Shown here in pieces: positions 1,678-37,620 of a stretch of DNA of 42,725 bases. The position numbers and the translations under genes were made by a program. The first letter of the stretch is position 1, and every line of letters starts with the position of its first letter. The DNA lies in the IMG/VR virus record IMGVR_UViG_2737471827_000006, positions 1-42,725 of that record. One strand, written 5' to 3'. The notes below the pieces were generated by a model. It was not told where the DNA came from. It saw nothing but the letters and a program-made list of their open reading frames with translations, and ran no database searches. The DNA is from a virus (taxonomy: Duplodnaviria; Heunggongvirae; Uroviricota; Caudoviricetes).

Positions 1678-1941
1678 TGTGACCTCCTGATGATGGTATC
1701 TGCATTATCGAACTTACAATACCAACAGTTATACCAACAAAACAAGCTGGATGTCCGTATATCCCAACAGTCCTTGGTAGACCATGGTTAAAGTGTACTT
1801 CATTGAAATGATTGGGAAAAATAGACTTTGATATACTTCGGTAGACAGGGTTCTGGCGTCCCCTGCAGACATCTACTTGAAGCGGCAGGGGATTGATTGG
1901 AATGATATTTTTTAGATGTGAGAAATATTTTACCCGCTATT

Positions 1942-2142
1942 TTACCCATTAGCGCGGCTTAAGAGCTTATTTTTGAATTCACAATGGTCACGATATAACC
2001 ATCTTGCGCGTCCGTGGATAACTTTGGCTTTTGGCAGGTCGCCGGACTTAATCCGGTCATAGATGAAGGTTTTACCAAAGCCAGTATCGGCCATGATGAA
2101 TTTCAAATCAACCAGTGAATCAGGTTGTAGTTCGTGTTGCAT
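1942..2142 (-). CDS. AlpA-family DNA-binding protein, likely excisionase/regulator
   Basis: 66 aa; AlpA-like sequence (FIMADTGFGKTFIYDRIKSGDLPKAKVIHGRARWL); immediately upstream of int on the same strand, the usual xis position. Confidence 0.75.
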   Translation of the reverse strand: MQHELQPDSLVDLKFIMADTGFGKTFIYDRIKSGDLPKAKVIHGRARWLYRDHCEFKNKLLSRANG

Positions 2143-2187
2143 GAGTGCTATCTCCGAATAGGGAATCGAACCTGCAAATCAGGCAAG

Positions 2188-2209
2188 AAAAAACCGCCAT
2201 CAGGCGGCT
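2188..2209 (-). terminator. Putative intrinsic terminator
   Basis: Minus-strand reading GCCGCC-TGAT-GGCGG followed by TTTTTT; short stem, so moderate support. Confidence 0.4.
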
Positions 2210-2370
2210 TGGTGTTCTTTCAGTTCTTCAATTCGAATATTGGTTACGTCTGCATGTGCTATCTGCGCCCATATCATCCAGTGGTCATAGCAGTCGTTGA
2301 TGTTCTCTGCTTCGATAACTCTGTTAAATGGCTCTCCATTCCTCCATTCACCTGTGACTCGGAAGTGCAT
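2200..2370 (-). CDS. Small hypothetical protein (56 aa), not in the supplied ORF track
   Basis: ATG preceded by GGAGATG SD-like motif; stop codon lies in the loop of a short GC hairpin followed by a T-run; translation MHFRVTGEWRNGEPFNRVIEAENINDCYDHWMIWAQIAHADVTNIRIEELKEHQAA. Confidence 0.4.
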   Translation of the reverse strand: MHFRVTGEWRNGEPFNRVIEAENINDCYDHWMIWAQIAHADVTNIRIEELKEHQAA

Positions 2371-2442
2371 TTATCATCTCCATAAAACAAAATCCGCCGT
2401 AGCGAGTTCAGATAAAAGAAATCCCCGCGAGTGCGAGGATTG

Positions 2443-2748
2443 TTATTCAGTGCTGATATTTACCTTTATAGCGAACACCTTTACCGGTTTATCGCCGAAG
2501 TGCGGATGTGTGATTGTTTTCACTTCATATCCTCCATACGGAACATCAATTCTGCGACTGGAGTCGTCGCGCTTCGGATATCCCTTTGTGATAATCAGGC
2601 GGTCATACTCGCGTAACATAATTCGCTTATTCCAGTAGTCATTACACAAGCGATACTCTTCCGTTTTCTCTCCGCGAATCATGGCATCGAAGTATTCACC
2701 TTTGACAGCAAGTTGCAGGTTAGCCATTACCGCACCTCCAGTCTCCAT
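2443..2748 (-). CDS. ASCH-domain protein
   Basis: 101 aa; contains the ASCH signature GxKxxExR (GEKTEEYR); overlaps the next upstream gene by 22 nt. Confidence 0.65.
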   Translation of the reverse strand: METGGAVMANLQLAVKGEYFDAMIRGEKTEEYRLCNDYWNKRIMLREYDRLIITKGYPKRDDSSRRIDVPYGGYEVKTITHPHFGDKPVKVFAIKVNISTE

Positions 2749-2987
2749 ACCGCCTGACCAATCCGGCTGGCATAGGTATCTTTGGATACTGCTCCGTCTT
2801 TAGCCAGCTCCATAAGAATTTTGCGCAAATCTGCCGAACGCCATTCTTCATCAGGAAATTCCTTCTCCATTGCCAACCGCAGATTCCAGGTTGCTATCGT
2901 GAATGGATATTCCCCGCCGAGAGCTTTCTCTTGCAGGGCAGCCCGGGAACGCATCACCTGCAAAACCTTCTCTTTTACATCTATCAT
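2727..2987 (-). CDS. Hypothetical early-left protein
   Basis: 86 aa ORF in operon context with short overlaps (ATGA coupling with upstream gene). Confidence 0.55.
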   Translation of the reverse strand: MIDVKEKVLQVMRSRAALQEKALGGEYPFTIATWNLRLAMEKEFPDEEWRSADLRKILMELAKDGAVSKDTYASRIGQAVWRLEVR

Positions 2988-3442
2988 TTCGCCTCCTGCG
3001 GCGGCTCTGGTAGTGGCATCCAGTGTGACGGCTCACATACCCCCTCAACACCATTCATGTAAAAGAATTGAAATAACCCTTTACCTTTGTGAAACCCTAC
3101 CATCTGCTCTTTTGTGTCTGAACAATAAACCAAAAAGCTACCTTTTTTGTAGGCCACATACGCAGTGCAATCTGACTCAATCAGGCTTTCTGTAGGGATG
3201 TACTGGCAATCAACGTGCCACACTGCCATTGCATCCACGCTATCAGCGCAAACAGGCTGATCGATATCTCGCCCACAATTCCAGGCTTTTTGGGCTTCTT
3301 CCAGCGTGTAAACATGAGCGCGATCGATATCAGAACTGTAACCATTGCCGTTATGGCAATGGAATGAAGCGTTATTGCCCACAGTTTCACGCGAGCACAT
3401 CATGTAAAAACGGTTAGTCACTGGCTGCCTCCTTTGCGCCAC
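2984..3442 (-). CDS. Hypothetical Cys-rich protein
   Basis: 152 aa ORF with many Cys/His; start uncertain (GTG at 3442, or internal ATG pair about 39 nt downstream). Confidence 0.5.
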
Positions 3443-3912: not shown

Positions 3913-4500
3913 TCAGAAAGGAGGGTAATCGTTCTGGCTGTAACCATAATCATCTGCATGATTCTGGCTTACGTTTTTAGAGCGATTGTCTTTATCTTTG
4001 AGATTGGCAACCATGTTGGCGATAGTTTCTGGTTGCTTGCCTTCTGCCTTTTCTTTAAGGGTTTGACCTGTTTGTGCAATAAACGGGATGCGTATTTCCA
4101 TCTGGTAGCTGTCTGCGCCAGTCTTTTTGTTTGTGGTTAATACTTTCTGGAGCACTAACCCGATTTTCTTTCCATGAAATTCAGGTGCAACAAATTTACT
4201 GGCGGAAACCATATGTTGCGTTAATTGTCCAATCCCGGCACACCCCATCATGGCGTGGACGACATTTGCGCCAAATTTATTTTCCGTTCCGTCATTTTTC
4301 TGAACACAGACGCTAAGATATTGGATTTTACGTCCGTCGTCGGATTCGCCAGAAAACTCAATAAATTTGGCTCCTTTTTCTGATTGCTTTAGTTCTGCTT
4401 CAGTAATGGTAATGATATGAGCGCCAGTTTCGTTAATAAAACCACCTTGCCCTGCGGTCAGTGCTGCTTCTTCGTTATAAGTAAAAATCACGTTGCTCAT
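3913..4500 (-). CDS. Phage SSB-like protein (DUF669-like) partnered with Sak4
   Basis: 195 aa; acidic aromatic C-terminal tip (DDYGYSQNDYPPF) reminiscent of SSB tails; sits immediately downstream of a Sak4-type ATPase, a known pairing. Confidence 0.65.
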   Translation of the reverse strand: MSNVIFTYNEEAALTAGQGGFINETGAHIITITEAELKQSEKGAKFIEFSGESDDGRKIQYLSVCVQKNDGTENKFGANVVHAMMGCAGIGQLTQHMVSASKFVAPEFHGKKIGLVLQKVLTTNKKTGADSYQMEIRIPFIAQTGQTLKEKAEGKQPETIANMVANLKDKDNRSKNVSQNHADDYGYSQNDYPPF

Positions 4501-5177
4501 GCGGCGTTTTCCTTAATTTGATGAACATTATTGATGCCGTAGTAATCACAAACAGTGGCATCGACGAAAGAGAGATCGTTATCAATCTCATTGGAGTCAA
4601 ACATTCCCATTGGGGATTTAACAGTGTCTGCACCGTTGTTTTTTGTGGTGAAAAAGAACTGGTCATCACGGGTAAGGGTGCGAAGAACTATAGTAAACAT
4701 GCCTTCGACAGTGATTTTCTCGTCCAGCATTTTGCCGATAGTTTTCATTTTCACGCGCCCCATAGGGGTTTCTTCGGTGTGTGCAAGAAAATAGACTCTC
4801 AGGTCATCAGGTGCATCCTGTGCAGCCTTAATCACCTCCCATGCGTGGCGGCCTATCTCAGTAAATTTATCAAACGATTTTTCTTCTGAGCGGCGCATAA
4901 ACTCATTGCTCATCACATACTGGAAGTCATCAACAATAACGATTCTTTTCCCGTATTCGTGAGCACGCTTAATTACGGCAACTATTACGTCCCATTTGTC
5001 AGTGGTAACTACGGTTCCTTTTTTTGCTCTGGCATCCCATGCAAGCCAGTCTTTTGATTTAAATGGTAGCGGCTTGCCTATTGGTTTTATAAGTATTGCT
5101 TCCTCTGGATTGATATTTCTCATGCTGGTTGATTTTCCGGTGCCAGATTCACCGAGTATTAATGTCGCAGTTCCCAT
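4497..5177 (-). CDS. Sak4-like recombination ATPase (RecA-fold)
   Basis: 226 aa; Walker A GESGTGKST near the N-terminus and Walker B-like IVIVDDF; occupies the exo/bet position. Confidence 0.8.
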   Translation of the reverse strand: MGTATLILGESGTGKSTSMRNINPEEAILIKPIGKPLPFKSKDWLAWDARAKKGTVVTTDKWDVIVAVIKRAHEYGKRIVIVDDFQYVMSNEFMRRSEEKSFDKFTEIGRHAWEVIKAAQDAPDDLRVYFLAHTEETPMGRVKMKTIGKMLDEKITVEGMFTIVLRTLTRDDQFFFTTKNNGADTVKSPMGMFDSNEIDNDLSFVDATVCDYYGINNVHQIKENAA

Positions 5178-5386: not shown

Positions 5387-5484
5387 TTTCTGTAGGCTTC
5401 GATGGCCTCACGAAACATCTTTTCATCGCCAATAAAAGTGGCGATAGTGAATTTAGTCTGGATAGCCATAAGTGTTTGATCCAT
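5371..5484 (-). CDS. kil: Kil-like protein
   Basis: 37 aa from internal ATG of track ORF 5371..5610; MDQTLMAIQTKFTIATFIGDEKMFREA matches my recollection of the lambda Kil N-terminus; AGGAG RBS 9-10 nt upstream. Confidence 0.6.
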   Translation of the reverse strand: MDQTLMAIQTKFTIATFIGDEKMFREAIEAYRKWRSK

Positions 5485-5617
5485 TTTTTGGGACTCCTGG
5501 CTGATTAAGTATGTCGATAAGGCGTTTCCATCCGTCACGTAATTTACGGGTGATTCGTTCAAGTAAAGATTCGGAAGGGCAGCCAGCAACAGGCCACCCT
5601 GCAATGGCATATTGCAT
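5453..5617 (-). CDS. cIII: CIII (FtsH inhibitor that stabilises CII)
   Basis: 54 aa from internal ATG; MQYAIAGWPVAGCPSESLLERITRKLRDGWKRLIDILNQPGVPKNGSNTYGYPD matches lambda CIII as I recall it; AAGGAG RBS 5 nt upstream. Confidence 0.85.
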   Translation of the reverse strand: MQYAIAGWPVAGCPSESLLERITRKLRDGWKRLIDILNQPGVPKNGSNTYGYPD

Positions 5618-5645
5618 GGTGTGCTCCTTATTTATACATAACGAA

Positions 5646-5670
5646 AAACGCCTCGAGTGAAGCGTTATTG
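5646..5670 (-). terminator. Putative intrinsic terminator (tL-like)
   Basis: Minus-strand hairpin AACGCTTC-ACTC-GAGGCGTT running into a T-tract; between the accessory gene and cIII. Confidence 0.45.
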
Positions 5671-5680
5671 GTATGCATAT

Positions 5681-5704
5681 AAAAAGGCCCTCACACTGGA
5701 GGGC
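5681..5704 (-). terminator. Putative intrinsic terminator (tL-like)
   Basis: Perfect 6-bp stem GCCCTC/GAGGGC with 6-nt loop, followed by TTTTT on the minus strand. Confidence 0.55.
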
Positions 5705-5808
5705 AAAGAAGATTTCCAATAATCAGAACAAGTCGGCTCCTGTTTAGTTACGAGCGACATTGCTCCGTGTATTCACTCGTTGGAATGAATACACAGTGCT
5801 TATTTGTA

Positions 5809-6279
5809 CTAATAAAATACCCAATTTTCTGTTTCTTGGTTGTGTCCAAAGTTATATTCAATATCTGGTGTTGATGTATCAATATTCTTCATCCCATCAA
5901 CAAGAGTTGATGCAACAGCCAAATCTTGTTTGATTCTCATTAAATGGTATTTCTTCCGGCGCAATAAACTTTCAATGGCAAGTGTCTTCGTTGGGAATGC
6001 AAAAGATCTTTCTGCATTTTTTGCTACTTTCTTAATTGCATATCTATTTCTCTTTTGTTTCCATTCCTGTAACCACTGATTTGGTGCTGGTTTAAAATTA
6101 ACAATCCAATGCGCAGGAACCAACCATGCATAATGCTCTGTCTGATGAAAAGCTATATATTGAAGTGCGAATATTTTGATTCCATCTTCTTCAACTGTCG
6201 CCTGGAATCTCCAGAAAACAGGCATTCCATCATGTTCAGTTTCTGATTCAGGAAAAGGTACACTCCATGATTTTGTCAT
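5809..6279 (-). CDS. Hypothetical accessory protein at the sieB/ral/ea10 position
   Basis: 156 aa ORF directly downstream of N; visibly AT-richer than flanking lambda-like genes; no recognisable family. Confidence 0.65.
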   Translation of the reverse strand: MTKSWSVPFPESETEHDGMPVFWRFQATVEEDGIKIFALQYIAFHQTEHYAWLVPAHWIVNFKPAPNQWLQEWKQKRNRYAIKKVAKNAERSFAFPTKTLAIESLLRRKKYHLMRIKQDLAVASTLVDGMKNIDTSTPDIEYNFGHNQETENWVFY

Positions 6280-31194: not shown

Positions 31195-31382
31195 CGTTTA
31201 ACAGCCTGCCGGACGGGCTGTCTTACCTTCTCAATCCGGTTGACGCCGGGTTAATTCCTTATACAGCACTTAAAGATGGCTCTGTCGATTTGTACGACAT
31301 TGCTCTCTTGAATGACCATCTGGCGGTAAAAGCGGATAACCAGCGGCGCATTGAGAAATGGAGAGAGGATAATGAACGCTGA
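31146..31382 (+). CDS. -1 frameshift extension of the tail assembly chaperone
   Basis: Stop-free -1 frame for 78 codons from the slippery site to a TGA overlapping the tape-measure ATG; no start codon of its own. Confidence 0.5.
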   Translation, partial: FAYTPYQHDAEPATGLTFNSLPDGLSYLLNPVDAGLIPYTALKDGSVDLYDIALLNDHLAVKADNQRRIEKWREDNER

Positions 31383-33360
31383 AACTATTAAAGATTTCCT
31401 CGTCTCGCTTGGCTTCAGTGTGGATGAGGCAGGAGCGAAAAAGTTCGGTTCTGTCCTCTCCGGTACAACTGCAAATGTCATCAAAATGGGGCTGTCTGTT
31501 GAAGGAGCTGCACTGTCCGTGGTGGCCTTCACGGCTAAGATCGCCTCCGGCCTGGATAATCTTTACTGGGCGTCACAGCGCACCGGCGCGACAGTCCAGG
31601 GAATTCAGTCTATTGGCTATGCGGTTTCGCAGGTTGGCGGCAGCGTGGACGCGGCGCGAACCTCTCTGGAAAGCCTCTCCCGGTTTATTCGTAACAATCC
31701 CGGTGCAGAAGGCTTTCTGAATCGCCTGGGCGTACAGACCCGTGACGCCAGCGGCAACATGCGCGACATGGCCGCTATCTTTACGGGTGTCGGACAGAAG
31801 CTCAGCAGCATGCCGTATTACCGGGCTAACCAGTATGCGCAGATGCTTGGCATTGACGAAAATACCCTCATGGCGATGCGCCGGGGTGTGGGTGATTTCT
31901 CCGGGCAGTACAGCGCAATGGCGAAAGCTATCGGCTTCAATGCTGACGAGGCGGCCAGAAGCTCCAACAAATTTATGACCTCCCTGCGTGAGTTTGGCGC
32001 GATGGCAGGCATGGCCCGTGACAAAATCGGCTCTAATCTTGCGGGTGGGCTTGCGGGTTCGCTGGACACTCTGCGCCGCCATATCCTGGACAACTTCCCG
32101 CGCATCGAGCAGACCCTGACGAAAGCCATAAAAGGCATTCTGGCGCTCGGGGATATTATCGGGCGGCTGTTCTTCAGACTGATTGAAGGAACATCAGGCC
32201 TCATCACCTGGTGGCAATCGCTGGATAAGCAAACGCGGGAGCTCATCTCGCTGTTTGGCGCGCTGACGATTGCGCTGCGCATTCTGAACAGTACGTTCTG
32301 GATGTCGCCGATTGGCCTCATTAGCGCGCTGGCGGCGGGGATTGCCCTTCTGTGGGAGGACTATCAGACCTGGAAGGAAGGCGGCGACAGCCTGATTGAC
32401 TGGGGCAAGTGGAAGCCGGAGGTCGATGCCGCGCTGAAGATGGTTCGTGACCTGAAATGGTCTGTTAATGAACTGGCGAAAGCGCTGGCGAAACTGCTCA
32501 ATATTGACCCCAAATCATGGTCCCTGAAGTGGGATTTCAGCAACTTCATCGACCAGATGGGCGAATTCAGCAAAATGCTGAACATGATCGCCGACCTGCT
32601 CAACGCTATCAAAGATGGCCGCTGGGCTGATGCCGTCAGCATCGGCAAACAGATACTTAATCAGGGCAGCGAAAATCCGTCAGCGATGCCGATGGTTACA
32701 GACAGCGCTAACAGTACTGCCGACTGGATTAAAGAGCACTGGGGATTTGATCCCCGCAGTGTGGGCCGGACGGTACGCGGCTGGTTTGGTGATGATGAGC
32801 CGGAACAACATGCACAGGCTACGAAACGAGGAGAACGGAATAACAATCCGGGAAACCTTAATTTTGCTGGTCAGGCAGGGGCTTCTCTTGAACGCCCGGG
32901 CGGGCGATTTGCCAGATTTGAAACTGCCTTTGATGGATTACGGGCTCTTGCTCGTCAGTTAATGCTGTACGCCGGACGGGGAATAAACAGTGTGGAGAAA
33001 ATTATCTCTACCTGGGCACCTGCGTCTGATAATAACAACACAACTGCGTATATCAGGGCTGTATCGCAACGACTGGGAGTGGATCCCCGGGCTGCCCTGA
33101 ATATGAGCGATCCGCAAACCATGTCAGCATTGATGAGCAGCATTATCCAGCATGAGAATGGAAGAAATATCTATTCTCGAGAGCTGATTAATAAGGCTGC
33201 CGTGGCGGGAATTAGTGGCAAAATGACAGAGGTTAACCAGCAAAATACTTACCACATTTACGGTGGCGGAGATCCGCACGCTGTCGGTAATGAGGTTGCA
33301 CGTCGGCAACAGTCTGCAAATGCTCAGGTCATGCGAAGTAATCAGGTGAGGGTGGGTTAG
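31372..33360 (+). CDS. Tail tape measure protein
   Basis: 662 aa from ATG at 31372 (GAGAGAGG RBS); Ala/Gly-rich helical repeats and predicted TM-like segment. Confidence 0.85.
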   Translation: MNAETIKDFLVSLGFSVDEAGAKKFGSVLSGTTANVIKMGLSVEGAALSVVAFTAKIASGLDNLYWASQRTGATVQGIQSIGYAVSQVGGSVDAARTSLESLSRFIRNNPGAEGFLNRLGVQTRDASGNMRDMAAIFTGVGQKLSSMPYYRANQYAQMLGIDENTLMAMRRGVGDFSGQYSAMAKAIGFNADEAARSSNKFMTSLREFGAMAGMARDKIGSNLAGGLAGSLDTLRRHILDNFPRIEQTLTKAIKGILALGDIIGRLFFRLIEGTSGLITWWQSLDKQTRELISLFGALTIALRILNSTFWMSPIGLISALAAGIALLWEDYQTWKEGGDSLIDWGKWKPEVDAALKMVRDLKWSVNELAKALAKLLNIDPKSWSLKWDFSNFIDQMGEFSKMLNMIADLLNAIKDGRWADAVSIGKQILNQGSENPSAMPMVTDSANSTADWIKEHWGFDPRSVGRTVRGWFGDDEPEQHAQATKRGERNNNPGNLNFAGQAGASLERPGGRFARFETAFDGLRALARQLMLYAGRGINSVEKIISTWAPASDNNNTTAYIRAVSQRLGVDPRAALNMSDPQTMSALMSSIIQHENGRNIYSRELINKAAVAGISGKMTEVNQQNTYHIYGGGDPHAVGNEVARRQQSANAQVMRSNQVRVG

Positions 33361-34251: not shown

Positions 34252-35316
34252 ATGTCACAGAACTGGATGAGACATTTCGAGCTGCAGCTTGTGGACGGGA
34301 ACGGTCAGGGAATTGAGCTAAGTGATTTCAAAGTCACCTTTACGATCGACTGGTTCAACATCAGCAGCGCGTCCCGGGTAGGGACTATCAAAATTTATAA
34401 CCTTTCGGCAGATACTGTGAACCGAATTACCGGGCAGGAGTTTTCGAAAGTGCGGCTGATTGCCGGTTACGACGGTATCGCGCCGGAGGTGGCGGCAAGC
34501 GACGTCGGGACCGTGCGCGAAGTCGACGCGGCAGATGTGGGCCAGAGTGATGGCCGCAATTACGGGCTGATTTTCAGCGGAGAAATTCGCTACTCGGTCA
34601 CAGGAAAAGACAGCCCTATTGATTCCTATGTCCTGATTCAGGCAGCAGATACGGATCTGGCATTTGCCACCAGTATAACCTCACAGACGCTGGCTGCCGG
34701 TTACACGGTCGCAGATGTGAACCGTGCGCTGATGAAAGACTTTGAGGCCAAAGGCGCGGCCGAAGGACTGACGCCTGAAATGCCTGCTACCGTATACCCT
34801 CGAGGGCGGGTGCTGTTCGGCATGACACGGCATCTTATGGATAACGTGGCCGGACAATGTGGCGCAACATGGCAATTTGTGGACGGTCAGCGACAGATGG
34901 TGGCGAATAACGAGTATGTTCACGACGCGATTGTGCTCAACAGCGCCACCGGGCTTATCGGCATGCCGCAGCAGACTATCGGTAACGGCGTAAACGTCCG
35001 CGCTCTTATTAATCCGAACATCCGGGTTAACGGGCTTATTCAGCTGGATCAGGCTTCCGTGTACCGCACCGCGCTGTCGAACAATGATATCGCGAAGGCT
35101 GGTGGGAAGATCACCGACCAGAACACGGACGGAAATATCACGCTAAGCGGCACCACAGCACAACCTGCCAGCATCGCAACGGATGGCGTTTATATTGTGC
35201 GCGGGATTATGTACACTGGCGATACAAGGGGCCAGGCGTGGTACATGGATATGATGTGCGAAGCGCGTGGCGCGCAGGATATGCCATCGAGTACAGCATT
35301 GCAGAGGGGGTTATAG
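34252..35316 (+). CDS. Putative baseplate hub-like protein
   Basis: 354 aa between TMP-proximal genes and baseplate V; assignment by position. Confidence 0.45.
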   Translation: MSQNWMRHFELQLVDGNGQGIELSDFKVTFTIDWFNISSASRVGTIKIYNLSADTVNRITGQEFSKVRLIAGYDGIAPEVAASDVGTVREVDAADVGQSDGRNYGLIFSGEIRYSVTGKDSPIDSYVLIQAADTDLAFATSITSQTLAAGYTVADVNRALMKDFEAKGAAEGLTPEMPATVYPRGRVLFGMTRHLMDNVAGQCGATWQFVDGQRQMVANNEYVHDAIVLNSATGLIGMPQQTIGNGVNVRALINPNIRVNGLIQLDQASVYRTALSNNDIAKAGGKITDQNTDGNITLSGTTAQPASIATDGVYIVRGIMYTGDTRGQAWYMDMMCEARGAQDMPSSTALQRGL

Positions 35317-35318
35317 AA

Positions 35319-35666
35319 ATGAAACGATGGATTTTTTCATTGCTGGCGTTAGCGTCTGTTGGCGCAAGTGCAAACACCATAACGATGCAATGTGGTAACT
35401 TTCGTATGGACGCAATCCCTGACTCATTGTTTAAAATCAATGGCGAAACCGTAACATCCCAAAAAGTTAAGATGCTGGGCAAAGACGGTACAGGCATGCA
35501 GATCAAAATGGGACTGATGCCTGCTAAAGATGGCAACAACTATGGGTTTGAGTATATCCATCGTCCGGGTACCGAAACGCGTTTCCTGAACGTCCAGCTT
35601 CTGCAGAACAGCATGGATGCACCGAAAATCATCGGATCTTTCCCGTGTAAAAAGGTTGATGGTTAA
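35319..35666 (+). CDS. Small secreted protein with signal peptide (accessory gene)
   Basis: 115 aa from ATG at 35319 (GAGGGGG RBS); N-terminus MKRWIFSLLALASVGASA is a classic Sec signal with AxA cleavage site; two Cys in the mature part. Confidence 0.6.
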   Translation: MKRWIFSLLALASVGASANTITMQCGNFRMDAIPDSLFKINGETVTSQKVKMLGKDGTGMQIKMGLMPAKDGNNYGFEYIHRPGTETRFLNVQLLQNSMDAPKIIGSFPCKKVDG

Positions 35667-35779
35667 CCCAAAGTTACATTTCTGCATAGTGTTGAGTTTG
35701 TTCACATTCACTAAATAATGATTTTTTATCGCTTGCTAGGTGGTTGCATGATCACTAAACTTTGCGAACTTTTAGCGCT

Positions 35780-35808
35780 CAGCTAACTTTGAATAAGTGG
35801 TGTATAGT
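35780..35808 (+). promoter_or_regulatory. Candidate promoter for the two-gene accessory operon
   Basis: TG-adjacent -10 TATAGT in an AT-rich 160-bp intergenic region; weak -35; about 25 nt upstream of the RBS. Confidence 0.3.
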
Positions 35809-35834
35809 CGTTTAAAACGACAGAGGGATTGGGT

Positions 35835-36407
35835 ATGGCGATTAGCTACGCATTTGCGCTGGCAACAATTACACAACAAATGAATCAGGTTCAGGAAGCT
35901 GTTAACGGTGCTTTCAAACCCCTGATCTCTAATGCTTGTGAACTGCCACAACGATTAGATGCTGAAGAGGTATTTCGTCGTTGTACCGCGATTGCTGCAC
36001 GCGCTCAAGAAATCGAAAATACCGCGAAGGAAGGCATGTCTCATCTCGAAGCTTTTCGAAATGGGAGAATCATTGTTGATGAGCTTCCGGAAGAGTTTTT
36101 ATCCCATCTCGAAGGTCTTGCCAAGGCATGCCGAAATGCTAAAGGACATTTAGTGGATATGTTCTCTGAAGCGGAAAGGTCCCCTATGTGGCAAGGCCAT
36201 CTGCAAATGTTGCGCCCATTAAAACGCAAATATGTTCGTGCGTTGACCGCCGTCGAGAACACTGCAACTCAGTTGGCCGCTGAAGTTAGGCAATCGCAGC
36301 CTTTCCAGGCTGAACTCTTGTCAGATAATGTTACCCGTGAAGAGGCTATTGAACTGATCTCAACATCGCATAAGATGCTGGGAGCCAACGCCCATAAATG
36401 GATGTGA
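35835..36407 (+). CDS. Hypothetical protein A of accessory two-gene operon
   Basis: 190 aa from ATG at 35835 (GAGGG 7 nt upstream); predicted largely helical; no recognisable family; lower GC than flanking tail genes. Confidence 0.6.
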   Translation: MAISYAFALATITQQMNQVQEAVNGAFKPLISNACELPQRLDAEEVFRRCTAIAARAQEIENTAKEGMSHLEAFRNGRIIVDELPEEFLSHLEGLAKACRNAKGHLVDMFSEAERSPMWQGHLQMLRPLKRKYVRALTAVENTATQLAAEVRQSQPFQAELLSDNVTREEAIELISTSHKMLGANAHKWM

Positions 36408-36408
36408 C

Positions 36409-36825
36409 ATGGCAAAAGTCAGTATCACGGGAGAATTGCGTCATTTAGCTGCAGCACATAAGTATGCTCAAATGCTTGCCGATTATATTTCAAAGGGTTC
36501 CCAGTTCTGGTGTTTTGGTTCGTTAGGCGGTTTTGAACGTAACTATGATGCGATGGCTGCCAACATCAGGAAAATTCACTTAAAGCTACCTGGCGATAAA
36601 CCCTGGCCTCCAGAAGCATCTCTGAGTGAACGGACATGTGATAATTTTTTGGTATATGCTCAGCATCTTTATATCGATGAACACTATCAGATATTGGCAA
36701 TCATCAGCCCAAACGCTCATCAGCAAGCTGATTCGATGCTTCCCCGGCTGATAAAATTAGCAGAGGAAACCTTCATAGAACTTCCTCCTGATGAACTCGA
36801 AAAATTGAAAACCTACGATTCATAA
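36409..36825 (+). CDS. Hypothetical protein B of accessory two-gene operon
   Basis: 138 aa; start 1 nt after the stop of gene A; followed directly by a strong terminator. Confidence 0.6.
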   Translation: MAKVSITGELRHLAAAHKYAQMLADYISKGSQFWCFGSLGGFERNYDAMAANIRKIHLKLPGDKPWPPEASLSERTCDNFLVYAQHLYIDEHYQILAIISPNAHQQADSMLPRLIKLAEETFIELPPDELEKLKTYDS

Positions 36826-36826
36826 A

Positions 36827-36848
36827 CCCGCCACCCGGCGGGTTTTTT
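36827..36848 (+). terminator. Intrinsic terminator closing the accessory operon
   Basis: Perfect 6-bp GC stem CCCGCC/GGCGGG, 4-nt loop, six T. Confidence 0.8.
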
Positions 36849-36867
36849 GCTTTCTGGAGCCTACTAA

Positions 36868-37620
36868 ATGGCAGTATCTGACCAGACCCGCAGCGGCGAC
36901 CTTGCCGAAACATTCAAATCTGAACGGGAAACAACAAAGAATCAGATCCGTGTCGCCTTGCCTGGCATTATTCAGTCATTCGATCCTGATGCGGTGACGG
37001 CGGTTGTGCAGCCTGCTATCCGTTCGGTTGAAAAGGATAATGACGGCAACCGCATTACCAAAAATTACCCATTGTTGGTGGATGTTCCAGTGGTATTCCC
37101 ACGTGGCGGAGGATGTACGCTAACGTTTCCGATTAAAGCCGGGGATGAGTGTCTTGTCGTTTTTGCCGATCGTTGTATTGATTTCTGGTGGCAGAGCGGC
37201 GGAATACAGGAACCGGTCGATGACAGAATGCATGATTTATCGGATGCGTTTTGTATTGTAGGCCCCCAGTCGCAGGCGAGGAAGATTAGCGGCATTAATA
37301 CCAGTGCCACACAGTTGCGTAGTGACGATGGCAGCACCTATTTTGAGCTTAATCCTGATACCAGGAAAATTAAAATTGTCGCTCCGGGTGGTCTTGATGT
37401 GGTTGCCCCTCTGGCTGATTTTTCTGAGAAAGTAACCATTCATGGCCTGTTAACCTGGATGGGGGGCATGGTGGGGTCTGTTGTTTCTGGTGTGGCTTCA
37501 AAAATCACTGGTGTTGTTGAGTTTTTGGGTAGCGTGAAGGCTAACGGCAAGCCAATCGATGATACGCACACTCATGGCGGTGTTCAGCGCGGTGGAAGCA
37601 ATACCGATGGGGTAAACTGA
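36868..37620 (+). CDS. Baseplate assembly protein V (spike)
   Basis: 250 aa; resembles P2 gpV / Mu gp45-type baseplate spike proteins. Confidence 0.65.
   Translation: MAVSDQTRSGDLAETFKSERETTKNQIRVALPGIIQSFDPDAVTAVVQPAIRSVEKDNDGNRITKNYPLLVDVPVVFPRGGGCTLTFPIKAGDECLVVFADRCIDFWWQSGGIQEPVDDRMHDLSDAFCIVGPQSQARKISGINTSATQLRSDDGSTYFELNPDTRKIKIVAPGGLDVVAPLADFSEKVTIHGLLTWMGGMVGSVVSGVASKITGVVEFLGSVKANGKPIDDTHTHGGVQRGGSNTDGVN

Follow-up and report, generated by a model that had tools for sequence, protein, structure and literature searches.

What are three small genes doing between the hub and the spike of a phage baseplate, and do they belong together? The question is raised by positions 35319 to 36848 of a tailed-phage sequence of 42,725 nucleotides (IMG/VR record IMGVR_UViG_2737471827_000006), the whole of which is here called the window. 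Genes for proteins of 115, 190 and 138 amino acids (aa), named A115, B190 and C138 below, follow one another in this interval, and an initial annotation made from the letters alone took them for a single inserted, independently transcribed moron. Instead, comparison with related phages points to two unrelated things, a gene of the phage lineage (35319-35666) and a mobile module of toxin-antitoxin (TA) type (35667-36823), a reading to which we assign a probability of about 0.75. That the B190/C138 pair is a type II-style TA module appears just as probable. The features on which the argument turns are as follows.

34252-35316, plus strand: baseplate hub gene, the left backbone flank (PHROG 196, 8e-89; Pfam E217_GP41, 4e-5)
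35319-35666, plus strand: A115, secreted 115-aa protein with a predicted signal peptide at aa 1-18 (nucleotides 35319-35372)
35667-35834, plus strand: regulatory spacer of 168 bp and 37.5% GC, co-travelling with the two-gene module
35733-35761, plus strand: putative sigma-70 promoter of the module (TTGCTA at 35733-35738, 17-nucleotide spacer, TAAACT at 35756-35761)
35807-35821, plus strand: perfect palindrome GTCGTTT-A-AAACGAC in the leader, abutting the Shine-Dalgarno (SD) sequence (GAGG, 35823-35826)
35835-36407, plus strand: B190, all-helical 190-aa protein and presumed antitoxin or neutraliser (ATG with SD GAGG 8 nucleotides upstream)
36409-36825, plus strand: C138, YafO-family (PF13957) toxin of 138 aa, a predicted BECR-fold mRNA endoribonuclease (Pfam 4e-17)
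36824-36848, plus strand: intrinsic terminator, a backbone feature and the right border of the cargo slot (9-bp stem, 4-nucleotide loop, T6)
36868-37620, plus strand: gpV-like baseplate spike gene, the right backbone flank (Pfam N-terminal spike domain, 1.4e-44, plus Apex motif)

As a whole, the window represents a complete prophage (~42.7 kb); an integrase open reading frame (ORF) lies at 415-1677, and the tail genes run from ~29 kb on. Nearest to it are E. coli prophages and two isolated phages, vB_EcoM-606R2 (606R2; 96% nucleotide identity) and Salmonella phage SEN34 (a Brunovirus, 81%). The hub gene is 94-98% identical across the E. coli relatives, and the spike gene is 97-99.6% identical in several E. 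coli relatives with other cargo. Nucleotide homology to 606R2 and SEN34 spans the hub and stops at 35656-35666; it starts again precisely where the terminator hairpin does, at 36824. Comparison with these phages divides the interval: the pair is absent from both, as it is from close relatives whose flanking tail genes are 95-98% identical, whereas both have a homologue of A115 immediately after the hub (60% aa identity in 606R2, 64% in SEN34). Whatever the cargo, relatives from Salmonella, Klebsiella, Pantoea and Photorhabdus likewise have such a homologue directly after the hub, and the family has 388 clusters across Enterobacterales. Four of five further E. coli prophages inspected show the same synteny; the fifth, OkiPb01713, has an unrelated 154-aa secreted protein in this position (locus coordinates 1268-1732). 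Strain AR_452 carries the same pair (98.4% and 100% aa identity) and a spacer that, at 99.4% nucleotide identity, has travelled with it despite a 70% A115 allele in front, and strain FP4 has a 95.6% A115 allele beside different cargo. A115 and the pair therefore assort independently. Since homology breaks at the positions given, A115 assorts on its own and the spacer travels with the pair, the mobile unit is 35667-36823, made up of spacer, B190 and C138. The single three-gene insert of the initial annotation is thereby lost: conservation as a core gene across related phages is found for A115 and not for the pair, and the term moron in its Hendrix/Juhala sense fits B190/C138, absent or replaced in close relatives, but not A115.

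Other parts of that annotation stand. The three ORFs lie where it placed them, and the PGAP annotation of E. coli 4588 makes the identical three gene calls (115, 190 and 138 aa); an ORF listing gives TTG at 35829 as an alternative B190 start. The AT-rich intergenic region is present, and the two genes of the pair are tightly coupled, with a single base between the TGA at 36405-36407 and the ATG at 36409. The GC content of the cassette is indeed lower (44.6%) than that of the hub (54.9%) and the upstream tail genes (52.5%), the whole window having 48.7% (standard deviation 4.3%); though genuine, the dip is only a modest one, since equal-sized segments across the prophage place it at the 19th percentile.

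What, then, is the mobile pair? C138 matches the Pfam profile YafO_toxin (PF13957) with 62.6 bits (E 4e-17, gathering cut-off 25) over positions 12-98 of 101, and PGAP names it 'type II toxin-antitoxin system YafO family toxin'. Its identity to YafO of E. coli K-12 is 25% (E 5e-7), and its score of 31.4 bits against the NCBIfam YafO equivalog PRK09885 does not reach the cut-off of 153; C138 is therefore a member of the family and not an orthologue of K-12 YafO. Residues H57, R75, H104 and E119 (plus G37 and P101) are invariant in 12 sequences, which include K-12 YafO and the most distant relatives, and for the first four we infer a catalytic role. PDB sequences searched with the family profile, K-12 YafO included, gave no match and so no solved structure. 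Experiments have proven the yafNO locus of K-12 to be a TA system; its toxin cuts mRNA that is being translated, an activity known for K-12 YafO only, and two promoters serve the locus, that of an upstream operon and a proximal one under autoregulation (PMC2814082). The BECR-fold RelE/ParE monodomain toxins fall into 13 families, PF13957 among them, and the antitoxin gene precedes that of the toxin (PMC11980606). Among the functions initially proposed for the paired genes, TA is thus the best reading.

The upstream partner is less familiar. Searches with B190 returned nothing above curated thresholds in Pfam, NCBIfam or PADLOC; it belongs to PHROG 35514, to which no function is assigned, and PDB sequence and profile searches matched none of A115, B190 and C138. 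From an alignment of 27 sequences, AlphaFold2 predicts five helices (residues 3-31, 43-75, 86-115, 123-154 and 168-181) with a mean predicted local distance difference test score (pLDDT) of 77 and a predicted template modelling score of 0.66, and the fold matches generic bundles only. Remote-homology search, suggested at the outset, has thus placed C138 in the YafO family by Pfam but leaves B190 without a curated family, PDB match or specific fold. B190 shows no similarity to YafN (BLASTP E 0.42 over 23 residues), no match to Pfam PhdYeFM and no HTH, RHH, AbrB or Phd domain by Pfam or fold. Its most conserved motifs are AExSxxW..H and a C-terminal SHKxxGxxxPKW. A HEPN-like Rx4H motif (R100-H105) was considered and rejected, R100 being K in several members and the motif lying mid-helix. 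The family comprises 34 clusters at 90% identity, the toxin family being similarly small with 30, and an exhaustive hidden Markov model (HMM) search of 1.84 billion proteins retrieved only 14 representatives at E<=0.001. B190 is the presumed antitoxin or neutraliser of the YafO-like toxin and a member of a new family.

Its genetic company is constant. In every context examined (13 of 13 lineages) a B190 homologue is followed by a PF13957 gene of 137-142 aa, with a gap of 0-3 nucleotides or an overlap, and the partner family is confined to Enterobacterales. Six unrelated prophage backbones carry the pair within a tail or baseplate module; a single P22-like phage has it in the immI region. Outside the window, the paired loci are these.

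Pantoea siphovirus prophage: between tail chaperone and tape measure
A second siphovirus lineage: paired locus
Flyfo siphovirus Tbat2_3: after the tape measure
Serratia prophages: partner 35% identical
E. coli TUM9812: a different myovirus-type baseplate region with no A115 homologue
Three metagenomic lineages: paired loci
The two weakest HMM matches (E~1e-4): paired loci, one of them beside a transposase on a non-phage-looking contig
P22-like phage CUS-3: a remote paired locus in the immI region

Pairwise identities of partner and toxin correlate with r=0.97 over 13 pairs, the partner diverging faster (mean 39% vs 53%). Faster divergence of antitoxin than of toxin is usual. CUS-3 is a well-known K1 phage, and its locus (ECRS218_0007/0008, CP000711.1 7577-8580; locus coordinates 1860-2863) encodes a 199-aa protein and a YafO-like protein in genes that overlap by 16 nucleotides. 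The 199-aa protein aligns with the C-terminal half of the B190 profile at hhalign E 8e-5 with a probability of only 61%, and its homology to B190 is tentative. Besides the pair, the baseplate region of TUM9812 contains an antirepressor gene on the reverse strand and the gene of a 248-aa protein (locus coordinates 5461-6207), which is 'lysozyme inhibitor LprI family' according to PGAP but matches Pfam LprI only at E 0.003; with the antirepressor and the LprI-labelled gene, this baseplate module thus carries several extra cargo genes. A 115-aa protein adjoining the pair in TUM9812 was considered as an A115 relative and rejected as not homologous.

How would such a module be transcribed? In six of eight module loci scanned, TTGNNN-N16-18-TACACT occurs 61-129 nucleotides upstream of the B190 homologue, the sole such site per 6.5-10.5 kb locus. 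The window lacks the exact TACACT string; the element that aligns with TUM9812 and Flyfo is TTGCTA-17-TAAACT, with its -10 hexamer 79 nucleotides before the ATG. The Flyfo -10 stands at the same distance from its ATG, and TUM9812 has TTGCCA-17-TAAACT with a different spacer sequence. Taken together, TTGnnn-17-TA(A/C)ACT lies upstream, at a constant distance, in seven of nine module loci, and it is reasonable to regard TTGCTA/TAAACT as the phylogenetic footprint of a putative sigma-70 promoter. The TG-adjacent -10 element initially pointed out does exist, as TATAGT (35803-35808) preceded by GTG, but it has no usable -35, lies inside a conserved leader block and is off the footprinted promoter, the better-supported candidate; it was rejected. 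Another candidate, TTGAGT-16-AATAAT (35692-35719), was set aside because neither TUM9812 nor Flyfo conserves the part of the spacer where it lies. The spacer contains no LexA-box-like CTG-N10-CAG.

The leader block, GTGGTrtATAGTCGTTnAnAACGACAGAGG, is kept in the window, TUM9812 and Flyfo though the modules are only 65-72% identical, and its palindrome could be an operator or an RNA hairpin. Four homologous modules have a terminator-like hairpin and U-run between the conserved promoter and the B190 ribosome-binding site (e.g., GCCGAAGC-ctaac-GCTTCGGC-CTTTTTG; L004 ~4935-4975, L005 ~4930-4975, L010 and L012 ~3365-3405), where the window, TUM9812 and Flyfo leaders instead have the short palindrome without a U-run. 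In those four modules the hairpin and U-run may act as a leader attenuator.

The place where the pair sits is a recurrent one. The slot between A115 and the terminator and spike holds at least 8 alternative cargos.

Window: 190+138-aa pair
606R2: 170-aa ORF
SEN34: unrelated 138-aa ORF
E. coli E2348/69: 256+131-aa pair (locus coordinates 1727-2879)
E. coli OkiPb01713: 243+142-aa pair (locus coordinates 1939-3098)
Other E. coli prophages: DUF2335 protein; DUF4282 protein; 121-aa ORF
Pantoea: 204+124 aa, or a reverse-strand gene
Photorhabdus: three small genes

By these comparisons, the B190/C138 unit reads as a true moron in a cargo hotspot. Its carriage is sparse: the pair occurs in 38 of 5,426 complete E. 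coli genomes (35 copies being at least 99% identical) and the backbone in 353 (~6.5%), and among 50,697 deposited phage genomes B190 was found only in the Flyfo siphovirus. The recurrent pair of E2348/69 and OkiPb01713, a protein of 243-256 aa (PHROG 17809/22649) with one of 131-142 aa (PHROG 5176), has no assigned function; PADLOC searches with the other slot cargos gave only faint HEPN_IX hints (E~0.009), which fall on its small protein, and it could be another toxin-type pair.

The slot ends at a terminator. As initially described, a perfect GC hairpin with T6 closes the pair (AAACCCGCC/GGCGGGTTT, 9 perfect pairs and a 4-nucleotide loop at 36824-36845, the T run reaching 36848). This strong terminator follows the pair but is apparently not its own: the same terminator precedes the spike gene in 11 of 11 relatives examined, with compensatory double changes at two base pairs, and because it is conserved whatever the cargo, it is best assigned to the slot and not to the cargo. 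An Rfam scan of 35000-37100 found nothing but one sub-threshold match on this terminator. The terminator and its tail (GG(C/T)GG(G)TTTTTTGCTTTCT, 36824-36860 in the window) also stand 3' of the pair in unrelated siphovirus prophages, in near-identical copies (Flyfo L008, 5988-6020; Serratia L010/L012, ~4417-4446), and the shared sequence could serve as a homology patch for cargo swaps between phages.

If A115 is not part of the module, what is it? Its N-terminus, MKRWIFSLLALASVGASA|N, has a positive n-region, a hydrophobic core and an AxA site (cleavage ASA|N), which by the von Heijne rule we read as a Sec signal peptide. In the AlphaFold2 model the chain folds from residue 21 on, forming a small up-and-down beta-barrel in which pLDDT is >90. 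The mature domain is conserved, with two invariant Cys, and the signal region is variable among homologues; differences cluster in the signal peptide and in the first third of what follows it. A115 starts 2 nucleotides past the hub stop behind a strong SD, with no spacer room for a promoter, and is therefore made with the late tail proteins, being translationally coupled to the hub and co-translated with it as part of the late tail operon. In E. coli prophages that share 94-99% of hub and spike, aa identity between A115 alleles runs from 60 to 100%. From synteny and allele distribution, A115 is best described as a backbone gene of SEN34/Brunovirus-like myovirus prophages with hypervariable alleles, outside the mobile insert.

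That a tail module should encode a periplasmic protein of such rapid divergence suggests an envelope role against related phages, and A115 may be a periplasmic superinfection-exclusion factor under diversifying selection, possibly aimed at the tail lytic transglycosylase/tip complex. Its nearest counterparts among known proteins are the periplasmic lysozyme inhibitors PliC/MliC/PhiA; it has no family HMM match and no specific fold match to MliC/PliC. At the tape-measure position (31351-33360) the window encodes a 669-aa protein that relatives annotate as lytic transglycosylase and whose Pantoea homologue has an SLT domain; with such homologues, the tail would have its own peptidoglycan hydrolase, which bears on the speculative role of the periplasmic barrel. 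Two deposited annotations can be amended here. SEN34_20 (NC_028699.1) is annotated from 2619 (77 aa), whereas homology to the 115-aa family reaches an ATG at 2511 (2511-2852), so the deposited start cuts off the signal peptide; and the 606R2 hub, annotated as two coding sequences (1453-2091 and 2098-2517), aligns by tblastn as one 354-aa protein at 95%.

For the pair, a working scheme can be proposed. In the lysogen, the module would be transcribed from its own sigma-70-like promoter, with C138 translationally coupled to B190 across the 1-nucleotide gap. The B190 helical bundle, in place of the canonical YafN (Phd/YefM), would bind and silence C138, probably through its conserved C-terminal SHKxxGxxxPKW end. 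On loss or displacement of B190, free C138 would cleave translated mRNA and arrest protein synthesis and growth. During the lytic cycle, read-through from the tail operon would supply B190 and C138 together, sparing the phage.

Several points weigh against this scheme and against the TA reading behind it. C138 is not orthologous to YafO and may act differently. Typical type II antitoxins have a DNA-binding domain, but none can be recognised in B190, which with its 190 aa is also unusually large; binding and neutralising of C138 by B190 are themselves predictions. The generic promoter scan performs at chance (7 found, 7.5 expected), the TTGCTA/TAAACT element scores below its 9/12 threshold, and promoter activity and lysogenic expression of the pair are likewise predicted. 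Linkage alone could produce r=0.97, so that the correlation is supportive and not decisive. Finally, PADLOC-DB 2.0 yielded for A115, B190 and C138 only a chance match to Cas7 (E 0.018).

Could the same facts be explained otherwise? Acquisition of A115 and the pair as one independently transcribed moron would fit the mosaic break against 606R2, where identity falls from ~95% to ~55% at the hub's last codons, and the position of all three genes in one low-identity, lower-GC stretch. It is nevertheless very improbable: every relative with an A115 homologue has it right after the hub whatever the cargo, the 2-nucleotide distance from the hub stop leaves no promoter space, A115 assorts independently, and the pair enters other phages without it. 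Smaller still is the chance that the two proteins of the pair serve in the baseplate or its assembly and have escaped recognition as such. Their location between hub and spike would suit this, but the pair is absent from phages with 95-99% identical hub and spike, it takes different positions in siphovirus tail regions, and no structural-protein family in Pfam or PHROG matches either protein, which bears out the initial impression that they are unlike virion components. Somewhat less improbable than these two is that there is no TA at all, C138 being a YafO-fold RNase for lytic growth (e.g., host mRNA shut-off), with B190 either regulating it or acting separately as an effector. The two genes point the same way as the late tail operon and so are certainly transcribed late; six of six informative backbones have them in a tail or baseplate module, the distant CUS-3 pair being in immI; and B190 lacks antitoxin hallmarks. 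Set against this, the isolated phages 606R2 and SEN34 lack the pair and are fully functional, and a strict antitoxin-then-toxin bicistron with a faster-evolving upstream partner is typical of TA.

If the pair is a genuine TA, what would it be selected for? We lean, at somewhat under even odds, to an abortive-infection or exclusion device that acts in the lysogen against superinfecting phages, and given TA identity we favour this over prophage retention, addiction or selfish module persistence, which we consider unlikely. Retention would be classic TA behaviour on a mobile element, and it accords with the missing PADLOC match, the near-identical (>=99%) copies in 35 E. coli genomes and the one distant copy beside a transposase, outside any phage tail region. 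The slot, however, is a typical prophage cargo hotspot of a kind known elsewhere to hold defence genes (P2/P4, PMC9122126; Tab, PMC10884400), and RelE-superfamily TA modules with documented phage-triggered activity exist (PMC11980606). The defence reading has a bolder form, which is doubtful: B190 would represent a new antitoxin class, a large helical-bundle neutraliser without a DNA-binding domain that also senses proteins of the incoming phage, giving a YafO-based abortive infection that spreads between tail modules, with A115 separately a possible exclusion factor.

How does the pair compare with known systems? With yafNO of K-12 it shares a toxin of the same Pfam family with common invariant H/R/H/E residues, an antitoxin gene placed first with the toxin tightly adjacent and, by inference for the present locus, reading from an upstream operon as well as a proximal promoter (PMC2814082). 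However, C138 is only 25% identical and below the NCBIfam equivalog cut-off, B190 is all-helical and twice as long (190 vs 97 aa) with neither YafN similarity nor a known DNA-binding fold, and yafNO is chromosomal whereas the B190/C138 locus is phage-borne. Late-operon morons such as those of lambda/HK97 and Tab/anti-Tab of Pseudomonas phage JBD26 (PMC10884400) are likewise extra transcription units in a late structural operon, present or absent among near-identical phages, bounded by a terminator and of different composition, and Tab/anti-Tab has the same two-protein arrangement of effector and neutraliser. Tab, though, is on the opposite strand, between terminase genes, and blocks tail assembly, whereas B190/C138 is co-oriented with the tail operon, its effector is an RNase-family toxin and its terminator is owned by the slot.

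The hotspots of P2-like phages and P4 (PMC9122126) resemble the slot in being fixed intergenic sites between core genes with many alternative, mostly uncharacterised one- or two-gene cargos; the slot of the window is in another phage lineage and at another position (from the hub/secreted-protein gene to the spike gene), and no meaningful score against known defence models was obtained for any of its cargos. The CUS-3 pair has the same architecture, with a toxin matching PF13957 at 3e-11 and an upstream protein with both AExSxxW..H and SHKxxGxxxPKW. It differs in lying in the immI (ant/mnt) region and not in a tail module, both of its proteins are annotated as hypothetical, and identity is only ~20% for the upstream protein and 36% for the toxin. 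Earlier papers mention YafO-like genes briefly, for example in the Salmonella prophage mTmII (PMC9836087) and in clusters encoding tailocins (PMC4684702), and in an E. coli census only ~8% of YafO_toxin partner clusters were known antitoxins (PMC10790755). The searchable literature yielded no description of the B190 partner family or of the hub-to-spike hotspot; the C138 toxin is already auto-annotated, and the partner family and hotspot are apparently undescribed.

YafO is among the least understood toxins of the RelE superfamily, and the present locus defines one family of its partners: tiny, helical, restricted to Enterobacterales, always paired, and moving as a ready-made cassette between prophage tail modules. 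In practice, a 190-aa 'hypothetical protein' can be relabelled as a putative YafO-associated antitoxin. The locus also maps a hotspot, from the hub/secreted-protein gene to the terminator and spike, in a lineage found in ~6.5% of complete E. coli genomes, where the cargos are mostly uncharacterised pairs. Should the pair prove toxic and rescuable, it would add a new antitoxin fold to the type II repertoire and offer a tractable candidate for prophage-encoded abortive infection.

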